Assembly (NCBI GenBank): GCA_965648905.1 | Contig: CBFGIT010000001.1 | Span: 8,704 to 72,703 of the forward strand | From: a candidate division WOR-3 bacterium | GTDB taxonomy: Bacteria > Hydrothermota > Tepidihabitantia > Tepidihabitantales > Tepidihabitantaceae | DNA: 64,000 bases | Direction: 5' to 3' | Part shown: positions 7,393-56,210 of the stretch, one piece after another | Layout: each line of letters opens with the position of its first letter | Position numbering within the stretch: the first letter of the stretch is position 1 | Notes under the pieces: model-generated | What the model was told of the DNA's origin: nothing | The model's database searches: none | The model's input: the letters and a program-made list of their open reading frames with translations, nothing else | Translations under genes and position numbers: made by a program

Positions 7393-7876
7393 TCTCTGCC
7401 GCGAGAACGAAGCCAGCATCAAGGTCCATCAGATGGACTCGGGCGGTAAGGTGACCGAACTTGCCGTCTGCACCGAGTGCGCCCGGCAACGGGGCCTGGC
7501 CGAGGTCAAGCCGGCCAAGACCGCGTCGGTCGAGGTAATGGCCGAACTCAAGGCCGGACTCAAGGAAAAAGACGCCGCGCTGGTCTGCTCGCACTGCGGC
7601 ACGACACTGGCCGACTTCAAGCGCCAGGGCCGGCTTGGCTGTGACTACTGCTACATCGCCTTCCGCGAAGAACTCCTGCCCCTGATTCGGCGCCTGCACG
7701 GCGCAACCCAGCACCTGGGCCGGACAACCAGAACCGGCCGCAAAGACGCTCATGTCCGGCTGACCACAGACCGGATCCGGGATGCCCTCTCTGCCGCGAT
7801 CAAGAACGAGGACTACGAGAAAGCTGCGGCACTGCGCGATGAACTGCGCAAGGTGGAAGATGAAGCTGGGAAGTAA
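7379..7876 (+). CDS. mcsA: McsA-like protein (zinc-finger CxxC pairs + C-terminal UVR motif), activator of protein-arginine kinase
   Basis: Two CxxC..CxxC zinc-ribbon motifs and a UVR motif (DYEKAAALRDELRKVE). It lies directly upstream of and overlaps mcsB. Confidence 0.6.
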   Translation: MKKCDLCRENEASIKVHQMDSGGKVTELAVCTECARQRGLAEVKPAKTASVEVMAELKAGLKEKDAALVCSHCGTTLADFKRQGRLGCDYCYIAFREELLPLIRRLHGATQHLGRTTRTGRKDAHVRLTTDRIRDALSAAIKNEDYEKAAALRDELRKVEDEAGK

Positions 7877-8903: not shown

Positions 8904-10285
8904 TGAATGATAAGGGCGTGATGTTTCGTTCCCTGCCTTCGGTCGACAGGTTGCTTGCCGATGCCCGGCTCGGCCCGGTCCTTGGCCGGGTGCACCGACG
9001 GATGGCGGTGCGGGCGGTAAGGGAGTATCTGGAGGAGGTGCGGGCCGACATCACTGCGGGACGAACTCGGGAGTTCTGTATCGAGGAACTGCGGGAGCGG
9101 CTTGAAGGCGAGATTCGGCCGACTCTGGTCCGTGCAATCAACGGCCTCGGTGTCATCCTGCACACCGGTCTCGGTCGGGTTCCTTTGTCGCGCGCAGCGC
9201 ATGAAGCGCTGGCCGATGCGGCCGAGCACTTCTGCTGTCTCGAGATTGACCGCACCACCGGTCGCCGCGGCAGCCGGTACCGGCACATCGAGCCTCTTCT
9301 CTGCGAGCTGACCGGCGCGGAAGCGGCCATGGTCGTGAACAACAACTGCGCGGCAACGCTCCTAATTCTCACCGGCCTGGCGCGCGGCCGGGAGGTTGTG
9401 GTCTCGCGCGGCCAGCTTATCGAAATCGGCGGTGCGTTCCGGATTCCGGAGGTGATGCTTCAGAGTGGTTGTCGAATGGTCGAGGTTGGCACGACCAACC
9501 GTACCCATCTGCGTGACTACCGCAGCGCCATTAGCGCCGATACGGCACTGCTGTTGCGCGTCCACACTTCGAACTACCGGATCACCGGTTTCACCAAAGA
9601 AGTCGGGCTTGACGAGTTGGTCGCGCTCGGGAAAGAGCACTCGATCCCGGTTGTCGACGACCTGGGCTCGGGCGCACTCATCGACCTTTCGAAGTACGGT
9701 CTGCCCAAGGAGCCGCTGGTACAGGAGTCGGTTGCGGCGGGCGCAGACCTGGTCTGCTTCTCCGGCGACAAACTCATCGGCGCATCCCAGGCCGGGATCA
9801 TTGTCGGCCGGAAGAAGTACGTTGACCTGCTCAAGAAACACCCATTGACCCGGGCCCTGCGCTGCGGCAAGCTCACCTATGCGGTACTTGAACGTACTCT
9901 CCTGCTTTTTCTCGACGAGGAGCAGGCCGTGAAGGAGCACGCTTTGTTCCAGTTGCTTCTGAAGCCGGTGGCGCAGTTGCAGACTGAGGCGACCGCACTG
10001 AAACGCCGGGTCGGCCCGGCCCTGGCTGGTAAGGCTGAACTGCGGGTCCGGCCGTGCCGGGCTGAAGTCGGCGGCGGTTCGCTTGCGACCGAGAGCCTTG
10101 AATCCCGTTGCCTGGCCCTGAAGCCAAGAGCCATTTCTGTGGACGAGCTTGCCCGCCGGATGCGGCGCAACCGCCCGCCGGTGTTCGGTCGGGTCGAGCA
10201 CGACGAATACCTGCTCGACTTTCGCACGATTCGCCGGGATGAAATCCCCTTGATCGCTCAAGCCCTGCTTGCCGCGCTGAGCTAG
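8900..10285 (+). CDS. selA: L-seryl-tRNA(Sec) selenium transferase SelA
   Basis: 461 aa with N-terminal LPSVDRLL and a PLP fold-type I core typical of SelA. ATGA overlap with mcsB. Confidence 0.9.
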   Translation: MMNDKGVMFRSLPSVDRLLADARLGPVLGRVHRRMAVRAVREYLEEVRADITAGRTREFCIEELRERLEGEIRPTLVRAINGLGVILHTGLGRVPLSRAAHEALADAAEHFCCLEIDRTTGRRGSRYRHIEPLLCELTGAEAAMVVNNNCAATLLILTGLARGREVVVSRGQLIEIGGAFRIPEVMLQSGCRMVEVGTTNRTHLRDYRSAISADTALLLRVHTSNYRITGFTKEVGLDELVALGKEHSIPVVDDLGSGALIDLSKYGLPKEPLVQESVAAGADLVCFSGDKLIGASQAGIIVGRKKYVDLLKKHPLTRALRCGKLTYAVLERTLLLFLDEEQAVKEHALFQLLLKPVAQLQTEATALKRRVGPALAGKAELRVRPCRAEVGGGSLATESLESRCLALKPRAISVDELARRMRRNRPPVFGRVEHDEYLLDFRTIRRDEIPLIAQALLAALS

Positions 10286-10304
10286 GGACCGACCGGCAGT
10301 CCGA

Positions 10305-11204
10305 ATGCTCCACCTTTCGGTTGACGTCGCTTCCCGGTCAGGCCGGGGCCTGCGCACTGCAGGCCCGCTGGTTGCTTTGGCCCTTGCAACCGCGGCCGCG
10401 GTCGCAAGTGTTTTCGGACTAGACGAGGTACAGAAGGTTGCTGGTTCCTGGTGGTTCGTTGCCGCCGCGTGTCTGTGCGGGCTGAGTGGTCTTGTCGGTG
10501 CGGTCAGACTGATTGGGCAGCGAAGACGGACGGCTGCGCTGTCACACTTCGGACTCGCACTCGGAATCGTCGGCATCCTTCTGAACCAGACCTTGAGTCG
10601 CGGCGGCTACCTGTTCCTGCCGGTTGGAGCCGGAGCACGGAACTACTGCCTAGCACAGAACCTGAAGGGGGTTGTTGAGCTGCCGTTCTCGGTTCGGCTC
10701 GACTCGCTCGGGGTGCGGACCAGCCGTGGCTTCAGACCTGCGCCCGCGGCACTTATCCGCGCCACGGCCGGCACGAAAGCTTTCGCCGCATCACTGACTT
10801 GGAACCATACCGTCACGGTCGATGGTTACCGGCTGGTGCTGTCCCGTGTCGTTGAGCAAGGGTTCCTTGAAGAGTACGAACTGGCGGTGGGCGAAGACGA
10901 ATACTCGCTCCTGCACAACCAGCGTGTCCGTCTCCGGCCCGGACTGGAAGTCACAAGCTTCGGCTTCGACGTCGAACACAAACAGGTCGGTCTGGTCGTG
11001 AACAATACCCGGCAGTGGCTTGCAGTCGGCGATTCGGCAGCGGTCGAAGGCGCACGTCTGCGACTGACTGCGGCATCTTTCGCACCAGCAGTTGGGGCGG
11101 TATTCGTCGCTAACGACGTCCGGCTGCGGCCGGTGCTGTTCATCGGCTTTGGTCTTGTGCTTCTGGGACTGCTGGGCGAGGCTCTTAGGAGAGCCGAACC
11201 GTGA
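10305..11204 (+). CDS. short ResB/CcsB-like cytochrome c biogenesis membrane protein (putative)
   Basis: 299-aa membrane protein whose stop overlaps the ccsA start (ATGA). It is called by position and topology only and is much shorter than canonical ResB. Confidence 0.4.
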   Translation: MLHLSVDVASRSGRGLRTAGPLVALALATAAAVASVFGLDEVQKVAGSWWFVAAACLCGLSGLVGAVRLIGQRRRTAALSHFGLALGIVGILLNQTLSRGGYLFLPVGAGARNYCLAQNLKGVVELPFSVRLDSLGVRTSRGFRPAPAALIRATAGTKAFAASLTWNHTVTVDGYRLVLSRVVEQGFLEEYELAVGEDEYSLLHNQRVRLRPGLEVTSFGFDVEHKQVGLVVNNTRQWLAVGDSAAVEGARLRLTAASFAPAVGAVFVANDVRLRPVLFIGFGLVLLGLLGEALRRAEP

Positions 11205-11950
11205 CCGAGCCAGTCCTGCTCTGGCTTGCCCTTGGTGCCTATGTTGTGTCAGGCCTTGTGACCGTGCTCGGCCGCAGGCCGGCCTTCTGGCCGGGCGTCG
11301 TACTTTCAGGATTGGGCCTAGTCCTGCAGGTCGTGTTTGTCGTGCTCCGCGCTATCGCAACCGGGTTTTTGCCTTTTGCCTCGCGATTTGAGGCGCTGGC
11401 GCTCTTCGCCCTGGCCGCGCAGGGAGCAGGGCTTCTGGTCTACCTTGGCACGCGCCAAGGCTCGGCCAAGGCCGGCACTGACCTGGCCAGTGTGCTGCTG
11501 CTCGCGGGTGCGCTTGCTCCGGTCGGATTCCATCGTGGCGGTGACCTGAACCCGCTGCTTGACAGCCCGTGGTTCGCCGGACACATTCTCGCCGCGTTCG
11601 CCGGCTACGGCTGTCTGGCTGCCGGCCTGGTCTGGAGCGTTGTCCGACTGTTCGACCGTGCTCTGGACCGAAACCCGTCGGTCCCGCTGCGCCTGGCCCG
11701 GGCCGGGCTTCTCCTGCTCGGAACCGGCATCCTGACCGGTGCGGCCTGGGCCGACACTTCATGGGGCAGCTACTGGAACTGGGACCCGAAAGAGTCATGG
11801 GCCCTGTTTGCCTGGACCGTGATGCTCGTCTACCTGCACTTCCGGTCCGGCCGTGTGCGCGACGTCGTCTTCTATGGTCTAGGCTGCGCCGCGATGATGT
11901 TTACGTTCTTCGGCATCAATCTGCTCAGGTGGGGACTGCACCGATACTGA
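11201..11950 (+). CDS. ccsA: cytochrome c-type biogenesis protein CcsA/ResC (heme exporter)
   Basis: WWD motif WGSYWNWDPKESWALFAW and multi-TM topology. Confidence 0.8.
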   Translation: MTEPVLLWLALGAYVVSGLVTVLGRRPAFWPGVVLSGLGLVLQVVFVVLRAIATGFLPFASRFEALALFALAAQGAGLLVYLGTRQGSAKAGTDLASVLLLAGALAPVGFHRGGDLNPLLDSPWFAGHILAAFAGYGCLAAGLVWSVVRLFDRALDRNPSVPLRLARAGLLLLGTGILTGAAWADTSWGSYWNWDPKESWALFAWTVMLVYLHFRSGRVRDVVFYGLGCAAMMFTFFGINLLRWGLHRY

Positions 11951-11994
11951 TTGACGCTGGCGGTTGCCGCCGGTATCCTCAAGTAGACACCCCC

Positions 11995-13455
11995 ATGACT
12001 ATCGCACAAGCCCTTGCGAACCTGGGCCGGCTCTATGACCGGCTGCTCGAACTCCGGGCTGACCGGAGTCTGTACCTTGTCGGCGGAACCATCCGCGACG
12101 TGCTCATGGGCCGGGAGCCGACCGACTTTGACTTTGCCGTGTCCGGGTCTGGGCTTGGGTTCGCTCGAGCCTTTGCCCGCAAGGCCCGTGGCCGACTGGT
12201 TGTCCTGTCTGAGCCGGATGACGAGGCACGCGTGGTCTGCCGCGAGGACCTGGTCTTTGACTTCACCGGGTTCGGCAATCTATCAATCGAGCACGATATC
12301 CGGCGCCGTGATTTTACGGTCAATGCCCTAGCCGCGGAGATTGACCACGGTCAGCCAGGCCCGATTATCGACCTCGTGCAGGGCCAGGATGATATCCGGG
12401 CACGTGTCATCCGGCCAGTGTCCGAAGACTCATTACGCCTGGACCCGCTGCGTCTCTTGAGAGCAATGCGCTTTGCCCTGGAGCTGGGCTTCGAGGTTGC
12501 CCCGGACGTATACGAGCAGGCACGCTCAGTTACCCTGCGCGAGACCGCGGCTGAGCGGATCGGGGCTGAGCTGCTGCGCATCATGGACCAGCCCGGTTCA
12601 TACCCGTTCATCCTGCGGCTTTTCGAGCTGGGCCGGCTGCAGGAGATTTTGCCCGAGCTTGGGCCGGTGTTCGACGACCCTGAGCTGCGCCACCATACGT
12701 TTCAGACCTGCTACAAGGTCGAGGAGCTCATCGCCCAGCCCGGATTCTTCGCCCGGTATGAGCCGGAGTGGGATGCATACTTTGGGCAGAAGGCAGAATG
12801 CAGAGTGCAGAATGCAGAGTGCAGAACGGCGGACGGCGCGGAGCGAGCAGCGAACAGTGAGCCTGTGCCTTATCGTCGCGCTCTGCTGAAGCTTGCCGGG
12901 CTGGTGCATGACATCGCCAAGCCTGAGACCCGGTTCACAAACACCGAAGGCGAGGTCCATTTCTATGGCCATGACAGCCTGGGCGCGAGGGTCGTCGGCC
13001 GCGTGGCACGCGAGCGCCTGCGCTTGTCCCGGGCCCAGACCACGATGCTCAAGACGCTCACTGCCGAGCACATGCGCCTGCACCTGCTTGCCACGACGCC
13101 TGACCTGACCGATCGTGCTGTTCGGCGTTACTTCCGTGATTTGGGCCCGGAAGCACTCGGCCTGATGATTCTCTGCGTGGCCGACGGCTGGGCGACCGCG
13201 GGTCGAACCTCGCATCTTGAGGATACCATCGCGCGGATGTTTGACCAGAAGCGGGCTGAGGACTCGGCCCGTCGCGTCCGGCGGCTGGTTACAGGCGACG
13301 ACCTGATTGAGCTTGGACTCAAGCCCGGCCCGGCGTTCAAGGTGATTCTGCAGGAGCTTGAGGACCTGCAGGTTGAAGGCCGGATTACGTCGAAAGAGCA
13401 GGGAATCGAGTATCTGAAAACCCACCTGACCGGCCTGGCCCGGACTGACTCATAG
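11995..13455 (+). CDS. cca: CCA-adding tRNA nucleotidyltransferase / poly(A) polymerase family protein with HD domain
   Basis: PolyA_pol head (GGTIRDVLMGREPTDFDFAV) and HD motif (HDIAKPET). Internal ATG at 11995 chosen; the upstream ORF part would overlap ccsA. Contains heptad repeat 12793-12862 in-frame. Confidence 0.8.
   Translation: MTIAQALANLGRLYDRLLELRADRSLYLVGGTIRDVLMGREPTDFDFAVSGSGLGFARAFARKARGRLVVLSEPDDEARVVCREDLVFDFTGFGNLSIEHDIRRRDFTVNALAAEIDHGQPGPIIDLVQGQDDIRARVIRPVSEDSLRLDPLRLLRAMRFALELGFEVAPDVYEQARSVTLRETAAERIGAELLRIMDQPGSYPFILRLFELGRLQEILPELGPVFDDPELRHHTFQTCYKVEELIAQPGFFARYEPEWDAYFGQKAECRVQNAECRTADGAERAANSEPVPYRRALLKLAGLVHDIAKPETRFTNTEGEVHFYGHDSLGARVVGRVARERLRLSRAQTTMLKTLTAEHMRLHLLATTPDLTDRAVRRYFRDLGPEALGLMILCVADGWATAGRTSHLEDTIARMFDQKRAEDSARRVRRLVTGDDLIELGLKPGPAFKVILQELEDLQVEGRITSKEQGIEYLKTHLTGLARTDS
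12793..12862 (+). repeat. heptad repeat tract (GCAGAAT/GCAGAGT)x5 degenerating into AGCGAAC-type heptads, inside cca
   Basis: 10 consecutive 7-nt units, translated in-frame as AECRVQNAECRTADGAERAANSE. Confidence 0.9.
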
Positions 13456-13463
13456 CGCAGGAC

Positions 13464-14423
13464 ATGACTCCGTCTTTCGTCTACGGCCCGGTTCCCAGCC
13501 GCCGTCTCGGTCTTTCCCTAGGCATCAATATCATCCCCCACAAGACCTGCACTCTCGACTGCGTCTACTGCCAGTGCGGCCGCACCACGGACAAGGCCGT
13601 GCAGAGAAGGTCTTTCTTTCCGGTTGATGAAGTTGTCGCCCAGGTGCGCGCCGCGGTCAAGCGTTCGCGGCCGTCATACCTTACTTTCTCCGGTGAAGGC
13701 GAGCCGACGCTCAACAAGGACATCGGTCGAATCATCCGCCGGCTCAAGGCCGAGACGAGCATTCCGGTCGCGGTGATAACCAACTCGACCCTCCTGACCG
13801 ATCCGGTGGTCCGGCGCGACCTGTCCGCGGCTGACCTGGTCGTGCCGTCGCTCGACGCTGCCGACCAGCGCGTATTCTCTTGGATTGACCGGGGCCGCCG
13901 GGAACTCGCGGTGAGTGATATCATCGACGGTCTGGTTCGGTTCCGACGGCACTTTCGTGGTCAGATGTGGCTTGAGATTATGCTTGTCAAGGACGTGAAC
14001 GATTCGGTCGAGCATCTGATGAAGCTCCGGCTTGCTGCGGAGCGGATCCGGCCTGACCGGGTGCACCTGAACACGGTTGTCCGGCCGCCGGCCGAAAAGT
14101 GGGCCCGGCCGCTTACCCGGGACGACCTTGAACAGGTTCAGATGCTTTTCGGACCGGGTGCAGAGGTCGTTGCGTCCTCGGTCCCGGTCAGGTCCAGGAC
14201 ACTCTCTGGCGACCCGGCACCGGCGCTGGTCGCGCTTGTCTCATCACGGCCGGTGACCGAGGAGGATGTTGTGCGCGCCCTGAGGCTTGAGCCGGGCCGG
14301 GCGCGTCAGGCCCTTGCCCGCCTGGTCGCCCAAGGTCGAATCCGGCGCGTTCGGTTCCAGGGCAAGGTCTACTTCGAGAAGCCGCAGGCGAAAGGCGAGA
14401 GGCGAACGGCGAATGGCGAATAG
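13464..14423 (+). CDS. radical SAM protein (CxxxCxxC) with C-terminal winged-helix-like tail
   Basis: CTLDCVYC cluster motif and GEGEPTL glycine-rich SAM motif. Its C-terminus is encoded by heptad repeat 14387-14442. Confidence 0.7.
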   Translation: MTPSFVYGPVPSRRLGLSLGINIIPHKTCTLDCVYCQCGRTTDKAVQRRSFFPVDEVVAQVRAAVKRSRPSYLTFSGEGEPTLNKDIGRIIRRLKAETSIPVAVITNSTLLTDPVVRRDLSAADLVVPSLDAADQRVFSWIDRGRRELAVSDIIDGLVRFRRHFRGQMWLEIMLVKDVNDSVEHLMKLRLAAERIRPDRVHLNTVVRPPAEKWARPLTRDDLEQVQMLFGPGAEVVASSVPVRSRTLSGDPAPALVALVSSRPVTEEDVVRALRLEPGRARQALARLVAQGRIRRVRFQGKVYFEKPQAKGERRTANGE

Positions 14424-14442
14424 CGAACGGCGAACGGCGAGC
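14387..14442 (+). repeat. heptad repeat (GGCGAAN)x8 spanning the radical-SAM stop codon and the start codon of the downstream lipoprotein gene
   Basis: ggcgaaa ggcgaga ggcgaac ggcgaat ggcgaat agcgaac ggcgaac ggcgagc; ATG 14413 and TAG 14421-14423 both lie within it. Confidence 0.9.
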
Positions 14443-49673: not shown

Positions 49674-52600
49674 CTAGCGCTGGAGCACGAGTTTCTGACT
49701 GACTGAGTAAACGCCTGCGTTCAGACGCACCGTGTATACGCCGGCACTCAAGCCACGCAGGTCGAGCGGCAATGACGAAGTCCGAATGCCGAATGACGAG
49801 CGGAGGACGCGGCGGCCTGAGGCGTCGTAGATGCTGATGCTCGGGACACGATCCGAAATGCCGGGCACTTGGGTCATGTCCCAGCACAGCGTGGCGAAGC
49901 CGGAGCGGAGCGGGTTGGGCGTGATGGTGAACCCGGCCGGTCGCCTATCGAACGCCGAGGCCAGTACGCCAGACCGGGCTGCCCGGCCCGTGGCCAGGGG
50001 CAGTACGGTTGAGCCCGGTGTGTACATCCAGAACTCCTGGGTCTTGTTGCCCTTGAGCGCAAAGCACATGCCGGATCGGCCTGATACGTAGGGCGTGATG
50101 TCGCCGCCGAGCTTGACCTTCTTCTTCTTGCCGGTCGAGCCAAGCTCGGGCATCGCTTCCTGTTCCTGCCAGGAGTCGGCGGCAGCCAGGTATTTCCACA
50201 GCTCGGTTGTGTTACCGCCTTTGAGCGCGTAGACGCCGTCGTGCAACCACGCACCGGCCGCGCCGTCTTTCGACTTCTTGGACTTGCCCAGTCGGCCGAT
50301 GAGCGGCATGCCCGGCCGATTCGGACCCCAGGCATCGTCGATGATGTCATAGGCGAAGAGGACGTGATACTTGGCCTGGTGCACAAACACGGTCCGGTCG
50401 TCGTCATAGACCGCAAACGAGCCCGGGCCGAGCTTAAGTACGGGCGCGGGAATTGAGGCAAGTGGAGTCCAAGAGTCACTCACCGGGTCATAGCGGTAGA
50501 ACTCGTTCTTGTCGCCCTTGACAAGGTAGACCTTGCCCTGGGCATACGCGACATCAGCGCCGCCTTTGACCCGCCGGTTTGAGGTGCCGAGCGGGACCGG
50601 CTCAAGGGCTGACCAGGAGTCGTGTGCCGCATCGTACCGGTAGAAGCCCTGGGTGTTGTTGCCTTTGACCATGTAGACCAGGCCGTTACCGTCAGCGCAG
50701 GCATTGGCGCCTTTGCCGACCAACTTGTTCTCAACTCCGGCCGGAATCGGGCGGCGTGCGCTCCAGGAGTCGCCGACCGGGTCATAGGCGTAGAAGTCCG
50801 CGGTCTTGCCCCCGGCCGCAGCGTAGACCTTCATCGTTGCCGGCTCACCGACAACAAACGCACCAGCCTTGGCCGCAAGGGGCAGGCGGGCACGTTCAAG
50901 CCAGGGCGGCGGCGGCGGCCCGGTGATGAAGCTGAACTGACCGGTGAGCGTATCGTTGGCCGGGTTACCGTCGTAGGCAACACTGGTCGAGCAACGAGTC
51001 GTGTAGCTGCCTGGATCGTGTGGTTTGGGCAGAGTATCAAAGCCTACCATCACCGAACTGCCCGGAGCCAGACTGGTGACCGTGCGGCTGCTTGAGTAGA
51101 TGACCGAGTTGGCCTGGTCCAGAATCCGGAAGAACACGGTCGGCGCAGCGGCAAAGTTGCCCTGGTTGCGCACGGTTGCTGCCGGCACAACGACTGCGCC
51201 GGTATCGACACTGCCGACCGGAGAGTTGATTGCGCTCACGCCCACGTCCACCCGGCCGACGGTGAATGCCTGAGCTAGCGAATCGTTCGCCGGCACTTGA
51301 TCACCGCTCATCCTTGAGCGGCAGACCGCAGTGTACGATCCGGTCCAGGCATCCCAGTTCGGGAAGGTCGCGGTTGTATCGACACCCGAGGGCAGACCCA
51401 GAGGCAGGTCCAGGCTCTCAAGATACGCGGGCGATGAGTTGATGGCGAAGAACAGGCGGACCGGGTCGCGCTGCGTGCCGTAGTTGTGCACGACCGCGGC
51501 TGGCATGGTCGGCCCGGGCGGCACCATGCCTGAGGGCGACACAATCTGCGTTACACCGACATCACGCACCGCAACATAGACCGTGCCAAGCACCGTGTCG
51601 TTCGCGGCTACCATGTCTGCGGCGAGCATGGTCGTGCATCTTGTTGCTAGGGCACCGCGCTGGAGCGCGGTCCAGGACGCAAAGTTCACCGCCTGCGATG
51701 CACCGGCAGCCAGATTGGTCACGGTCTGGGTGTTCGAGTAGCCAGAGCCGATGTTGAGCCGGACATTGAACGTCGCCGCCTGAGTCCCGTTGTTCCGGAC
51801 TGTGGCCTGGGGCGCAATCACTGCGCCCGAATCGACCGTGCCGGTCGGAGCATTGATCGATACTGCCTCGGCGTCGAGCACGCGGACAAACACGTTCCCG
51901 GTCGCGATGTTGTTAGCCGGAACCATGTCACCAGTCAGCATCGTGGTGCATCTTGTCGCCAGAGTGCCGCGCTGGAGCGCGGTCCAGGACGCAAAGTTCA
52001 CCGCCTGTGACGCACCGGCGGCCAGATTGGTCACGGTCTGGGTGTTCGAGTAGCCGGAGCCGATGTCGAACCGGACATTGAATGTCGCCGCCTGAGTCCC
52101 GTTGTTCCGGACTGTGGCCTGGGGCGCAATCACTGCGCCCGAATCGACCGTGCCGGTCGGCACATTGATTGATACTGCTTCAGCATCGAGCACGCGCACA
52201 AGAACTGACCCGGTGTCACGGTCATTAGCCGGGGCAATGTCACCCGGGAGTTCGGTCGAGCATCGCACCACCTGGATACCGCGCGGCCAGTTCGAGCCGG
52301 CCAAGAAGGTCACATAGCGTGCCGTGCCCGGCGCATGAGCGGTGATGGCTGCGATCTGGTTGTAGCTCGACCCGATTCTCATCCGCACCTGGTAATCAAC
52401 CGTGCTCGAGCCGTAGTTGTACACTGTGCAGGCCGGAACCACCGACTGGGTCGAGTCGATCGTGCCGGTTGGTACTATGATGCGGCGCACGCCGACGTCG
52501 CCGACCTGGCGGCTGACGTCACCGGTAATGGTCCAGGCAAAGGGCTGGCGCGCGCTCGTTGCCACTTGGAAACCGTAAACCCGGATCGTCCAGACCCCGG

Positions 52601-54755: not shown

Positions 54756-56210
54756 ATGCGACCCGTACTGCGCCTGTTATCCGACAGCCTGGTTGAACAG
54801 GTCCTGGCCGAAGCCCGGACTCTCCTCTGCGGTCTGGGAATGATCGTGCACAACGACGCGGTGTTGCGACTGCTTGGTGAGCACGGTGCCGAAGTTGACC
54901 TTGCCCGCCACCATGTTCGGTTCAACAACGACATTATCGACTATGGCCTCAAATCCGCTCCCCGCTCATTCAAGCTGTTCGACCTGCTCGGCAACCAGAC
55001 CCATGAGTTTGCTGGCGACAACGTCTATTTCACCCCTGGCTCGGCCGCCTTGAATATCCTTGACTCCAGCACCGGCCAGATGCGGCGACCGAAGACTCCG
55101 GACTATGTCGAGTACGTTAAGCTCGTAAGCGGGCTTGACCACCTTGCGGCTCAGAGTACGGCGCTGATTCCTGATGACGTGCCGGAGCGCATCTCGGACA
55201 GCTATCGGCTGTATCTGAGCCTGCTCTTTGGCGAGAAGCCGGTTGTCACCGGCTGCTTCACTATCGAGTCGTTCGCGGTGATGCGTGACATGCAGGTCAC
55301 GGTCCGGGGTTCAATTGAGGCGCTTGCAGCCAAGCCGCTCACCATTTTCTCCTGCTGCCCGACTGCCCCGCTCAAGTGGAGCGATGTTACTTCTCAGAAC
55401 CTGGTCGACTGCGCAACCTGCGGCATTCCGGTCGAGTTCATCTCGATGCCTTTGTCCGGGTTCATGGCTCCGGTCACGCTCGTGGGAACACTGGTACAGC
55501 ACACGGCTGAGACCCTGAGCGGAGTAGTCATCAGTCAACTTGCCCGGCCGGGTACGCCGGTCCTCTATGGCGGCTCGCCGGCAATCTTCGACGTGCGGCG
55601 CGAAACCACGCCGATGGGTGCAATCGAGACGATGATGACCGACTGCGCTTACTCGGAAATCGGCAAGCATCTTGGCCTGCCGACCCAGGCCTATATTTCC
55701 TTGAGTGATGCCAAACTGCTCGATGCGCAGGCCGGACTTGAGACCGGGGTCGGCGCAATTCTCGCTGCCCTTTCTGGGATCAACAGCGTCTCCGGCCCGG
55801 GTATGCTCGACTTCGAAAGCTGCCAGAGCCTTGAGAAGCTCGTGCTCGACAACGAAGTCTGCGGCATGGCTGTGCGTCTTGTGCAGGGCATCGAGCCGAA
55901 GGACGACTTTCCAGCGCTGCCGCTCTTTGAGGAGCTGCTCAAAGAAGGTCATCTGCTCATCAGCCGCCATACCCGGCGCTGGCTCAAGACCGAGCACTTT
56001 TTCCCGGGTCCGGTTATTGATCGCGCCAACCACGGCCGCTGGCTTTCCGAGGGTGCTCTGACTCTGGCTGAGCGTGCCCGGCAGGAGAAAGAGCGTATCA
56101 TCAGTCGCTGGCAGCCGACAAGACTGCCTGAGGATGTGAAGAGAGAGCTGACCCGTCTGATGAGTGCTGAAGCCCGTCGCTGCGGGATGGAGCGCCTGCC
56201 CGCACTGTGA
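54756..56210 (+). CDS. MttB-superfamily (trimethylamine methyltransferase-like, non-pyrrolysine) substrate:corrinoid methyltransferase
   Basis: 484 aa with full-length similarity to the MttB/MtgB family (COG5598) and no in-frame UAG. Internal ATG with an aaagga SD. Confidence 0.85.
   Translation: MRPVLRLLSDSLVEQVLAEARTLLCGLGMIVHNDAVLRLLGEHGAEVDLARHHVRFNNDIIDYGLKSAPRSFKLFDLLGNQTHEFAGDNVYFTPGSAALNILDSSTGQMRRPKTPDYVEYVKLVSGLDHLAAQSTALIPDDVPERISDSYRLYLSLLFGEKPVVTGCFTIESFAVMRDMQVTVRGSIEALAAKPLTIFSCCPTAPLKWSDVTSQNLVDCATCGIPVEFISMPLSGFMAPVTLVGTLVQHTAETLSGVVISQLARPGTPVLYGGSPAIFDVRRETTPMGAIETMMTDCAYSEIGKHLGLPTQAYISLSDAKLLDAQAGLETGVGAILAALSGINSVSGPGMLDFESCQSLEKLVLDNEVCGMAVRLVQGIEPKDDFPALPLFEELLKEGHLLISRHTRRWLKTEHFFPGPVIDRANHGRWLSEGALTLAERARQEKERIISRWQPTRLPEDVKRELTRLMSAEARRCGMERLPAL

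Follow-up and report, generated by a model that had tools for sequence, protein, structure and literature searches.

Within a window of 64,000 nucleotides from the genome of a candidate division WOR-3 bacterium (contig CBFGIT010000001.1, positions 8,704 to 72,703, of assembly GCA_965648905.1), a gene of the tRNA nucleotidyltransferase family, provisionally named cca, carries in frame a tract of eleven tandem heptanucleotides. An earlier note on this DNA had regarded such a tract as unexpected in a housekeeping gene and as a likely substrate for phase variation by slipped-strand mispairing. Our analyses of the window and its relatives point elsewhere: the tract is probably a composite heptanucleotide simple sequence repeat (SSR), generated by slippage and tolerated in a permissive loop of the enzyme, and one case of a property found throughout the lineage. 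This view draws on direct observations of the periodicity of the tract, its translation in frame, the hypervariability of the corresponding region among orthologues and the enrichment of period-7 arrays in WOR-3 DNA, as well as on the disorder of the loop in a structural model.

Composition and Periodicity of the Tract

The tract occupies positions 12786-12862 of the plus strand and reads GCAGAAG GCAGAAT GCAGAGT GCAGAAT GCAGAGT GCAGAAC GGCGGAC GGCGCGG AGCGAGC AGCGAAC AGTGAGC. Ten heptads had been claimed at 12793-12862, and a direct reading of the sequence finds all of them, translated in frame as AECRVQNAECRTADGAERAANSE within an open reading frame (ORF) that ends at 13455; the eleventh, GCAGAAG at 12786, lies one unit 5' of the start given before. 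No two adjacent heptads in the tract are identical, and near-perfect units are confined to the first six. The tract is composed of two adjoining arrays of different families, a young array A and an older, decaying array B. Array A (12786-12826, plus strand) consists of the first five heptads and the GCAGAA of the sixth, that is 5.9 heptads of the type GCAGARN, and was found by Tandem Repeats Finder (TRF) at period 7 with 5.9 copies and 85% matches. Over 12793-12826 the same program reported period 14 with 2.4 copies and 100% matches (34 nt), so in this 5' half two heptads, one base apart, alternate strictly. Array B (12827-12862, plus strand) is a C followed by the last five units, degenerate RGCGRRC heptads that belong to the GGCGAAN family.

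Both halves are periodic far above chance. In array A, 29 of 34 positions match at lag 7 and 25 of 27 at lag 14, and the local lag-7 score of the 5' half (about 12785-12826) is 22, compared with a mean of 8.6 and a maximum of 14 in 100 first-order Markov shuffles of the whole window. Array B matches at lag 7 in 20 of 29 positions against a window background of 0.259 (binomial P = 1.5e-6). A sliding-window scan at 86% identity misses the array in cca, since its units alternate, and it is the local-score scan that detects it. Across the 64 kb, strong arrays occur only at lag 7 and its multiples 14 and 21, at 74-105, 12785-12826 and 14386-14440, and an Rfam scan of the window returned nothing at or near any of them.

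The Host Enzyme and Its Disordered Loop

The gene that holds the tract runs from 11995 to 13455 on the plus strand, its best start being the ATG at 11995 (MTIAQALANLG...), and encodes a protein of 486 amino acids (aa). Its assignment to the class-II tRNA nucleotidyltransferases with an HD domain (CCA- or CC-adding type) is secure, being obtained from Pfam, from sequence matches to the PDB and from Foldseek. The Pfam domains are PolyA_pol (PF01743, residues 26-140, E = 1.7e-20), PolyA_pol_RNAbd (PF12627, residues 166-222) and HD (PF01966, residues 277-397). The best PDB match by sequence is 3wfo (E = 2.5e-45, residues 22-481), and the Foldseek search was headed by 3wfp, 3wfo and 3wfr (E about 1e-20, TM-scores 0.65-0.76) and then by 3h37 and 5hc9, with the Thermotoga CCA-adding enzyme ranking after the first three. 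These three are PDB entries for a "tRNA processing enzyme", and PMC4810234 lists 3WFR as CC-adding. As the protein scores below every equivalog cut-off of NCBIfam (best TIGR02692, 160.3 bits vs 438.8) and its nearest solved relative is CC-adding, the earlier name cca stands for the family but not as an exact name, and does not fix CCA as against CC specificity.

That the gene is essential had been taken for granted, and it is probably indispensable, because the tRNA genes of related WOR-3 loci lack an encoded CCA: all five in a small sample, from other genomes, have no CCA directly 3' of the gene. No tRNA genes were found in the 64 kb window, and the encoding of CCA was for that reason judged from the five genes of related loci.

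The tract falls in a hypervariable loop insert of 28 codons (GQKAECRVQNAECRTADGAERAANSEPV; 12784-12867, plus strand), delimited by alignment between the conserved EWDAYF and PYRRALLKL, with nucleotides 12786-12862 encoding residues 264-290 of the 486. In an AlphaFold2 model made from a 37-sequence alignment, which has a mean predicted local distance difference test (pLDDT) score of 89.7 and a predicted template modelling (pTM) score of 0.83, residues 266-287 have a pLDDT below 50 and form the sole internal low-confidence segment. Residues 264-293 have no secondary structure in the model and are flanked by helices at 250-263 and 294-304, the second of which leads into the HD dyad, H305 D306. 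With a conserved His (H233/H234, H234 being invariant) upstream of the loop and the dyad downstream of it, the tract is inside the HD-domain region, and the position previously ascribed to it, between the nucleotidyltransferase head and the HD domain, needs correction. By this model, the tract is predicted to encode a disordered surface loop, in effect a low-complexity linker.

The Loop as an Insertion Hotspot among Orthologues

A database search with the protein produced 1,605 relatives, and 64 genome loci and 31 metagenome loci were compared. The nearest relatives are all from candidate division WOR-3, with protein lengths from 458 to 562 aa, and the main length-variable region of their alignment lies between the invariant EWxxYF and P[YF]RRxLLKL. 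In basal or distant WOR-3 orthologues, of 57-62% aa identity (loci L014, L016, L019, L021, L023, L024, L029, L033 and L035), the insert at this place is 2-3 residues, and in the GC-rich clade that includes the window it amounts to 13-69 unalignable residues. Against the 2-3 residues of the basal orthologues the 28 of the window are an insertion, as the earlier note had supposed. The DNA of the insert is 7-periodic in many orthologues (lag-7 identity 0.44-0.61 vs a background of about 0.26), and the inserts of the GC-rich clade are mosaics of differing heptamer arrays, which marks the loop as a long-standing landing pad. The insert of L005, for instance, has GTCCAAA/GGACAAA units followed by four copies each of CAATCTG, CCCCYGA and CTCCTCC, and that of L082 has five copies of GACAGCC and then CCCCGAC-like units.

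The closest relative of the window is L065, with 89% aa identity and a shared gene order (selA, a resB-like gene, ccsA, cca, a radical-SAM gene and a lipoprotein-like gene). No closer one was found, a metagenome scan with the window protein yielding none above 77% identity, and the 90% cluster of the protein has one member, from one contig. The loop of L065 is encoded by GCAGAAG GCGAAGT GCAGGAG GGTCAAG TCGAGAC CGAGAGC GCTGAGC, a degenerate form of the window tract, and the presence of this degenerate tract at the same place indicates that the perfect 14-mer repeat of the window is a recent expansion, in situ, of an ancestral array. The edge of the array has also changed: nearly all orthologues of the GC-rich clade have a D-x-W-G motif after EWxAYF, and in the window its D-x-W is missing (12781-12792; YFGQK vs YFDAWGVK in relatives), a loss of 9 nt (DAW).

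Heptamer Arrays across the Window and the Lineage

The tendency to form arrays of heptamers extends well beyond the cca loop. A search for tandem repeats of period 7, which the earlier note had proposed, was run on about 1.1 Mb of WOR-3 sequence and found this period to be dominant, at sites within coding sequences, at gene junctions and between genes. It comprised a TRF census of 952 kb (the window and 64 loci) and a census of exact arrays in 1.13 Mb, both sampled around cca loci and not from whole genomes. In the TRF census period 7 is modal, with 49 period-7 and 17 period-14 arrays vs 35 of period 12 and 16 or fewer of any other; among exact arrays of at least three copies there are 21 with 7-nt units and none with units of 6, 8, 9, 10 or 11 nt. 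The density of arrays is highest in the GC-rich clade, and some are also present in AT-rich "Stahlbacteria" loci. As in-frame heptamer arrays are usual in the housekeeping genes of this lineage, where they are the norm, there is nothing unexpected in finding one in cca.

Each of the three strong arrays of the window lies at least partly in coding sequence: one in pdxA, one in the cca loop, and one across the radical-SAM stop and the start of the next gene. Relatives carry both coding and intergenic arrays. The array in pdxA (gene call by TIGR00557, E = 7.8e-43) consists of 4.6 perfect copies of CAATCTG at 74-105 on the plus strand (TRF, 100% matches), and is in frame, giving the peptide RQSAICNLQSAM. 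CAATCTG in the same register as in pdxA was also seen in the cca loops and the radical-SAM N-termini of other WOR-3 genomes, and the radical-SAM gene of L004 contains in-frame arrays of CGCAACT and GACCAAG.

The third array, eight GGCGAAN units found by TRF at 14386-14442 (plus strand), extends from the 3' end of the radical-SAM gene (13464-14423) into the 5' end of the gene after it, and is read in two frames, one supplying the radical-SAM C-terminal tail and its TAG stop (14421-14423) and the other the ATG (14413) and charged leader, MANSERRTAS, of the next gene, which encodes 626 aa with a lipoprotein-like signal (LVGVLAFAVGLVCC). L065 has an array in the same two-frame stop/start arrangement (11830-11875). 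A likeness between this array, at 14387-14442, and the 3' units of the cca tract had been remarked upon before, and it is a close one, AGCGAAC being present in both and GGCGGAC and AGCGAGC each being one mismatch from units there. The idea that both arose by a shared repeat-generating process gains support from the likeness of these units and from the arrays throughout the lineage. Arrays are also present or absent between close relatives: L065 has a graded heptamer tract of 93 nt between selA and the resB-like gene (7716-7808; GCCCTTC ... TGCAATC ... TGCATTC TGCACTC ... TGCCTTT), and there the window has only a spacer of 20 nt (10285-10305).

One heptamer family recurs across unrelated loci. 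The canonical unit AATCTGC (NNTCTGC family, e.g., CAATCTG) makes up 10 of the 21 exact arrays, among which there are 11 distinct canonical units in total, and it is found at no fewer than three non-orthologous coding sites (the cca loop, the cca/radical-SAM junction and pdxA) and at intergenic sites. At the coding sites its arrays have 4-5 units, are always on the coding strand and are read in one peptide register, (Q/K)SAICNLQS. The reverse complement of array A is ATTCTGC/ACTCTGC, both of them one mismatch from AATCTGC and both beside AATCTGC in the 93-nt tract of L065; array A can for this reason be placed in the NNTCTGC family in the opposite orientation, opposite also to the array in pdxA. 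None of the CAATCTG, GCAGART and GGCGAAN units contains a stop codon on either strand, which holds for about half (50%) of all heptamers; on one strand about 69% of heptamers lack stops. Neither a flanking signature nor a target-site duplication was evident around the CAATCTG arrays.

Other Features of the Window and Its Relatives

A promoter-like site, TTGACG-17 nt-TATCCT, was located by exact string match at 11951-11979 on the plus strand, where it abuts the ccsA stop codon and lies 16 nt upstream of the cca start codon. The motif (TTGACGC...TATCCT) is also upstream of the gene in L065, L002, L003, L004, L013 and L017, and from its sequence it may well act as a promoter. Several proteins in the databases start early enough to translate the promoter-like motif, as "LTPASPGAILSLNV" or "LTPAEVAAILT", in N-terminal extensions, and those starts are therefore probably mis-called. 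An element of a different kind, encoding PNPGDSPRSGTVP in frame, is present in the head domain of cca in orthologues (L003 2083-2124, L004 10250-10291, L005 1468-1509, L013 1839-1880 and others) and absent from the window gene. The palindrome GGGGACAGTCCCC, in two direct copies, makes up the whole of it; the element has the look of a repetitive extragenic palindromic (REP) or hairpin-like one and also occurs just upstream of cca in L004 and L017.

Farther along the window, a weak heptamer array at 49771-49799 (AATGACG/AATGCCG, TRF score 30) lies inside a minus-strand ORF of 1664 aa; in its units it is similar to the GGCGAAT family read as the reverse complement, and it may represent either chance or another decayed array in frame. 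A tandem duplication with a period of 312 nt is found at 51625-52201 (1.8 copies, 92% identity, TRF score 1007). At 55701-55800 on the plus strand there is a match to Rfam PYLIS_3, the mttB pyrrolysine insertion sequence (40.6 bits vs a gathering threshold of 38), which suggests a putative MttB-family methyltransferase gene.

Origin and Consequence of the Tract

In the explanation that we favour, replication slippage with a preference in this lineage for steps of 7 nt would cause arrays to grow, and they would accumulate wherever they are tolerated, i.e., in protein loops, at gene termini and junctions, and in spacers. The cca loop would be one such place, structurally permissive by virtue of its disorder, with a recent expansion in the window, and the tract would be translated simply as a low-complexity linker whose peptide is neutral. 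A step of 7 nt shifts the frame, so that in a needed gene only net changes of length divisible by three would survive, the frameshifted variants presumably being purged by selection. On this account the tract is a mutational burden that selection keeps within bounds, and not a regulatory switch. Two points weigh against this explanation. The difference in length between the window and L065 was tried as a number of whole heptads and fails, the window having a net gain of 12 nt that includes the 9-nt DAW loss, and so other indels must have taken part; and slippage alone leaves unexplained why NNTCTGC should recur at unrelated loci in 4-5 units, without change of orientation or peptide phase.

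That recurrence would be accounted for if NNTCTGC-family heptamers were seeded by a sequence-specific or copy-paste process (ectopic gene conversion between arrays, template switching and an unknown enzyme are the candidates), with local slippage secondary and the cca tract being where a mobile cassette landed, similar to the short tandemly repeated repetitive (STRR) sequences of cyanobacteria. We consider this origin, the chief alternative to slippage, improbable. In its favour are the shared canonical unit in 10 of the 21 exact arrays, the uniform size, strand and register of AATCTGC at its three or more non-orthologous coding sites, and the correspondence between the reverse-complement units of array A and those of the L065 tract at 7716-7808. 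The orthologous site in L065, however, already has degenerate GCAGAAG-like units, which fits growth in situ; the 21 exact arrays have as many as 11 canonical units; some of the 10 AATCTGC arrays are orthologous or from duplicate contigs, and so represent fewer independent events; and neither a candidate enzyme nor a flanking signature was found. It is conceivable, if rather improbable, that the clade owns a sequence-biased mechanism that writes or copies short NNTCTGC cassettes, typically 4-5 units long and in either orientation, into many loci. With units free of stops on both strands, such cassettes would routinely enter housekeeping proteins in frame and stack into mosaic disordered linkers, and they would be a dedicated and ongoing source of novelty in loops and gene junctions, beyond that of passive slippage. 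Even so, seeding of this kind would alter the account of how the cca tract originated and not of its role.

As to that role, slippage into a tolerant loop also has to be set beside the proposal that the tract is a contingency locus, at which gain or loss of one heptad or one 14-mer would reversibly switch the nucleotidyltransferase off and on in a subpopulation. The length of the unit is not divisible by three, 34 nt of perfect 14-nt periodicity make slippage physically possible, and in Haemophilus influenzae hmw1A and a TonB-dependent receptor gene are frameshifted by intragenic heptanucleotide tracts (PMC2651432). The documented phase-variable heptanucleotide tracts of H. influenzae, however, are mostly of 13-38 copies and lie in or upstream of genes for surface proteins (PMC2651432), whereas array A has 5.9 copies at 85% matches, adjacent heptads that are never identical, and a setting in a housekeeping gene for tRNA 3'-end nucleotidyl transfer rather than in one for a surface, host-interaction or restriction-modification function. 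The product would be needed if the tRNA genes are without CCA, as all five in relatives are, and nearly all members of the clade have in-frame arrays at the cca loop. In addition, the arrays showed neither gain nor loss of 7, 14 or 21 nt among assemblies that are 96.6-100% identical over kilobases (L003/L073/L074, L005/L076/L090, L067/L068 and L071/L091), a comparison made at consensus level only. Arrays that are stable at this level of identity and much changed at the 89% protein identity of L065 point to turnover that is evolutionary and not visibly at the level of populations. With no run of identical units, a disordered and hypervariable loop as its setting, and no change in array length between the assemblies of near-identical relatives, the tract lacks support as the phase-variation substrate it had been taken for. 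It is probably not an on/off switch, a contingency function being very unlikely on this evidence, and a regulatory meaning is not supported.

Equally hard to sustain is the thought that the peptide itself (AECRVQN AECRTAD ...) has been selected, as a Cys-containing heptad that senses metal or redox state or that serves the HD domain as a regulatory linker. It does have two Cys, 7 residues apart, in a loop that abuts the metal-binding HD dyad, but there is zero conservation of the peptide among orthologues, the 89%-identical L065 having VKAEGEVQEGQVET with no Cys; the periodicity is at the level of 7 nt (29/34 at lag 7 and 25/27 at lag 14 in array A); and the loop is predicted to be disordered. 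A repeat at the level of the peptide, of 21 nt, was ruled out by the stronger 7-nt and 14-nt periodicity and by the unconserved peptide. Least credible of all, to the point of being negligible, is an artefact of assembly at a short repeat, although the source, a single NCBI contig of 213 kb, is evidently part of a metagenome-assembled genome: the tract is 77 nt and its perfect repeat 34 nt, below typical read and k-mer sizes, the reading frame is intact, and equivalent arrays occupy the cca loop in dozens of independent assemblies from different studies.

Comparison with Known Systems

No new regulatory mechanism for cca emerges from the case. For annotation, it means that heptamer arrays, once translated, account for odd low-complexity peptides in WOR-3 proteins (SAICNLQS, AECRVQN and GERRTAN, for example), which are not functional motifs or sequencing errors, and that the differences in length between orthologues at the cca loop are not to be taken as gain of a domain. 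It also means that SSRs with units other than triplets can persist for long periods inside essential genes when they are confined to disordered loops. The solved enzymes of the family (PDB 3WFO-3WFS and 3H37) are like the window protein in their architecture of head, neck, body and HD domain; in the GC-rich clade of WOR-3 the stretch from the conserved His to the HD dyad holds, in addition, a disordered insert derived from repeats.

The contingency loci of H. influenzae (hmw1A/hmw2A with TGAAAGA and AATTTTG, and a TonB-dependent receptor gene with AACAACC; PMC2651432) share with the cca tract a heptanucleotide unit, of which the intragenic gain or loss of one shifts the frame. They differ from it in having identical units, in belonging to genes for surface or uptake proteins and in varying between strains; the cca tract is imperfect, belongs to a housekeeping gene, and was not observed to vary. 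A nearer parallel is the excess of heptanucleotide SSRs in many bacteria, for which slippage and the footprint of the polymerase have been put forward by Mrazek, Guo and Shah (2007), as that work is related in PMC4692102 and PMC4679880. By the same two accounts, the long heptanucleotide SSRs of prokaryotes and the arrays of WOR-3 have in common tandem 7-nt units in few copies, a period of 7 that stands above the neighbouring periods, and slippage as the proposed cause. In the long-SSR survey, so far as it is represented there, coding DNA usually holds units that are divisible by three, and the 7-nt arrays of WOR-3 are read in frame within housekeeping genes and also lie at gene junctions; the surveys, to the same extent, are without WOR-3 genomes. 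The searchable literature, which is incomplete, yielded nothing on heptamer arrays in WOR-3.

Borg elements (PMC9879509) offer a functional analogue, as their tandem repeats arise de novo in ORFs and are expressed as fast-evolving disordered segments; the cca tract differs in that its 7-nt unit is read in all three frames in turn, and in being on a bacterial chromosome instead of an archaeal extrachromosomal element. Also among the closest parallels are the STRR sequences of Calothrix and Nostoc (GGGGAYT), the GGGAATC of Xanthomonas and the TAACTGA of the Beggiatoaceae (PMC4692102, PMC4679880), where, as in WOR-3, a few preferred heptamers are found in 2-6 repeats at many loci. Turnover of both length and sequence between close relatives is fast in those arrays and in the arrays of WOR-3. 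Those arrays are mostly intergenic (PMC4692102, PMC4679880), whereas the arrays of WOR-3 are frequently translated, with the tested units free of stops on both strands and devoid of G-quadruplex potential. The wider heptamer pattern is a modest but real curiosity: it extends the lineage-specific favoured heptamers known as STRR, TAACTGA and GGGAATC to an uncultivated phylum, and does so with an unusual bias to coding regions that could help to tell mutational from selective accounts of heptamer enrichment.

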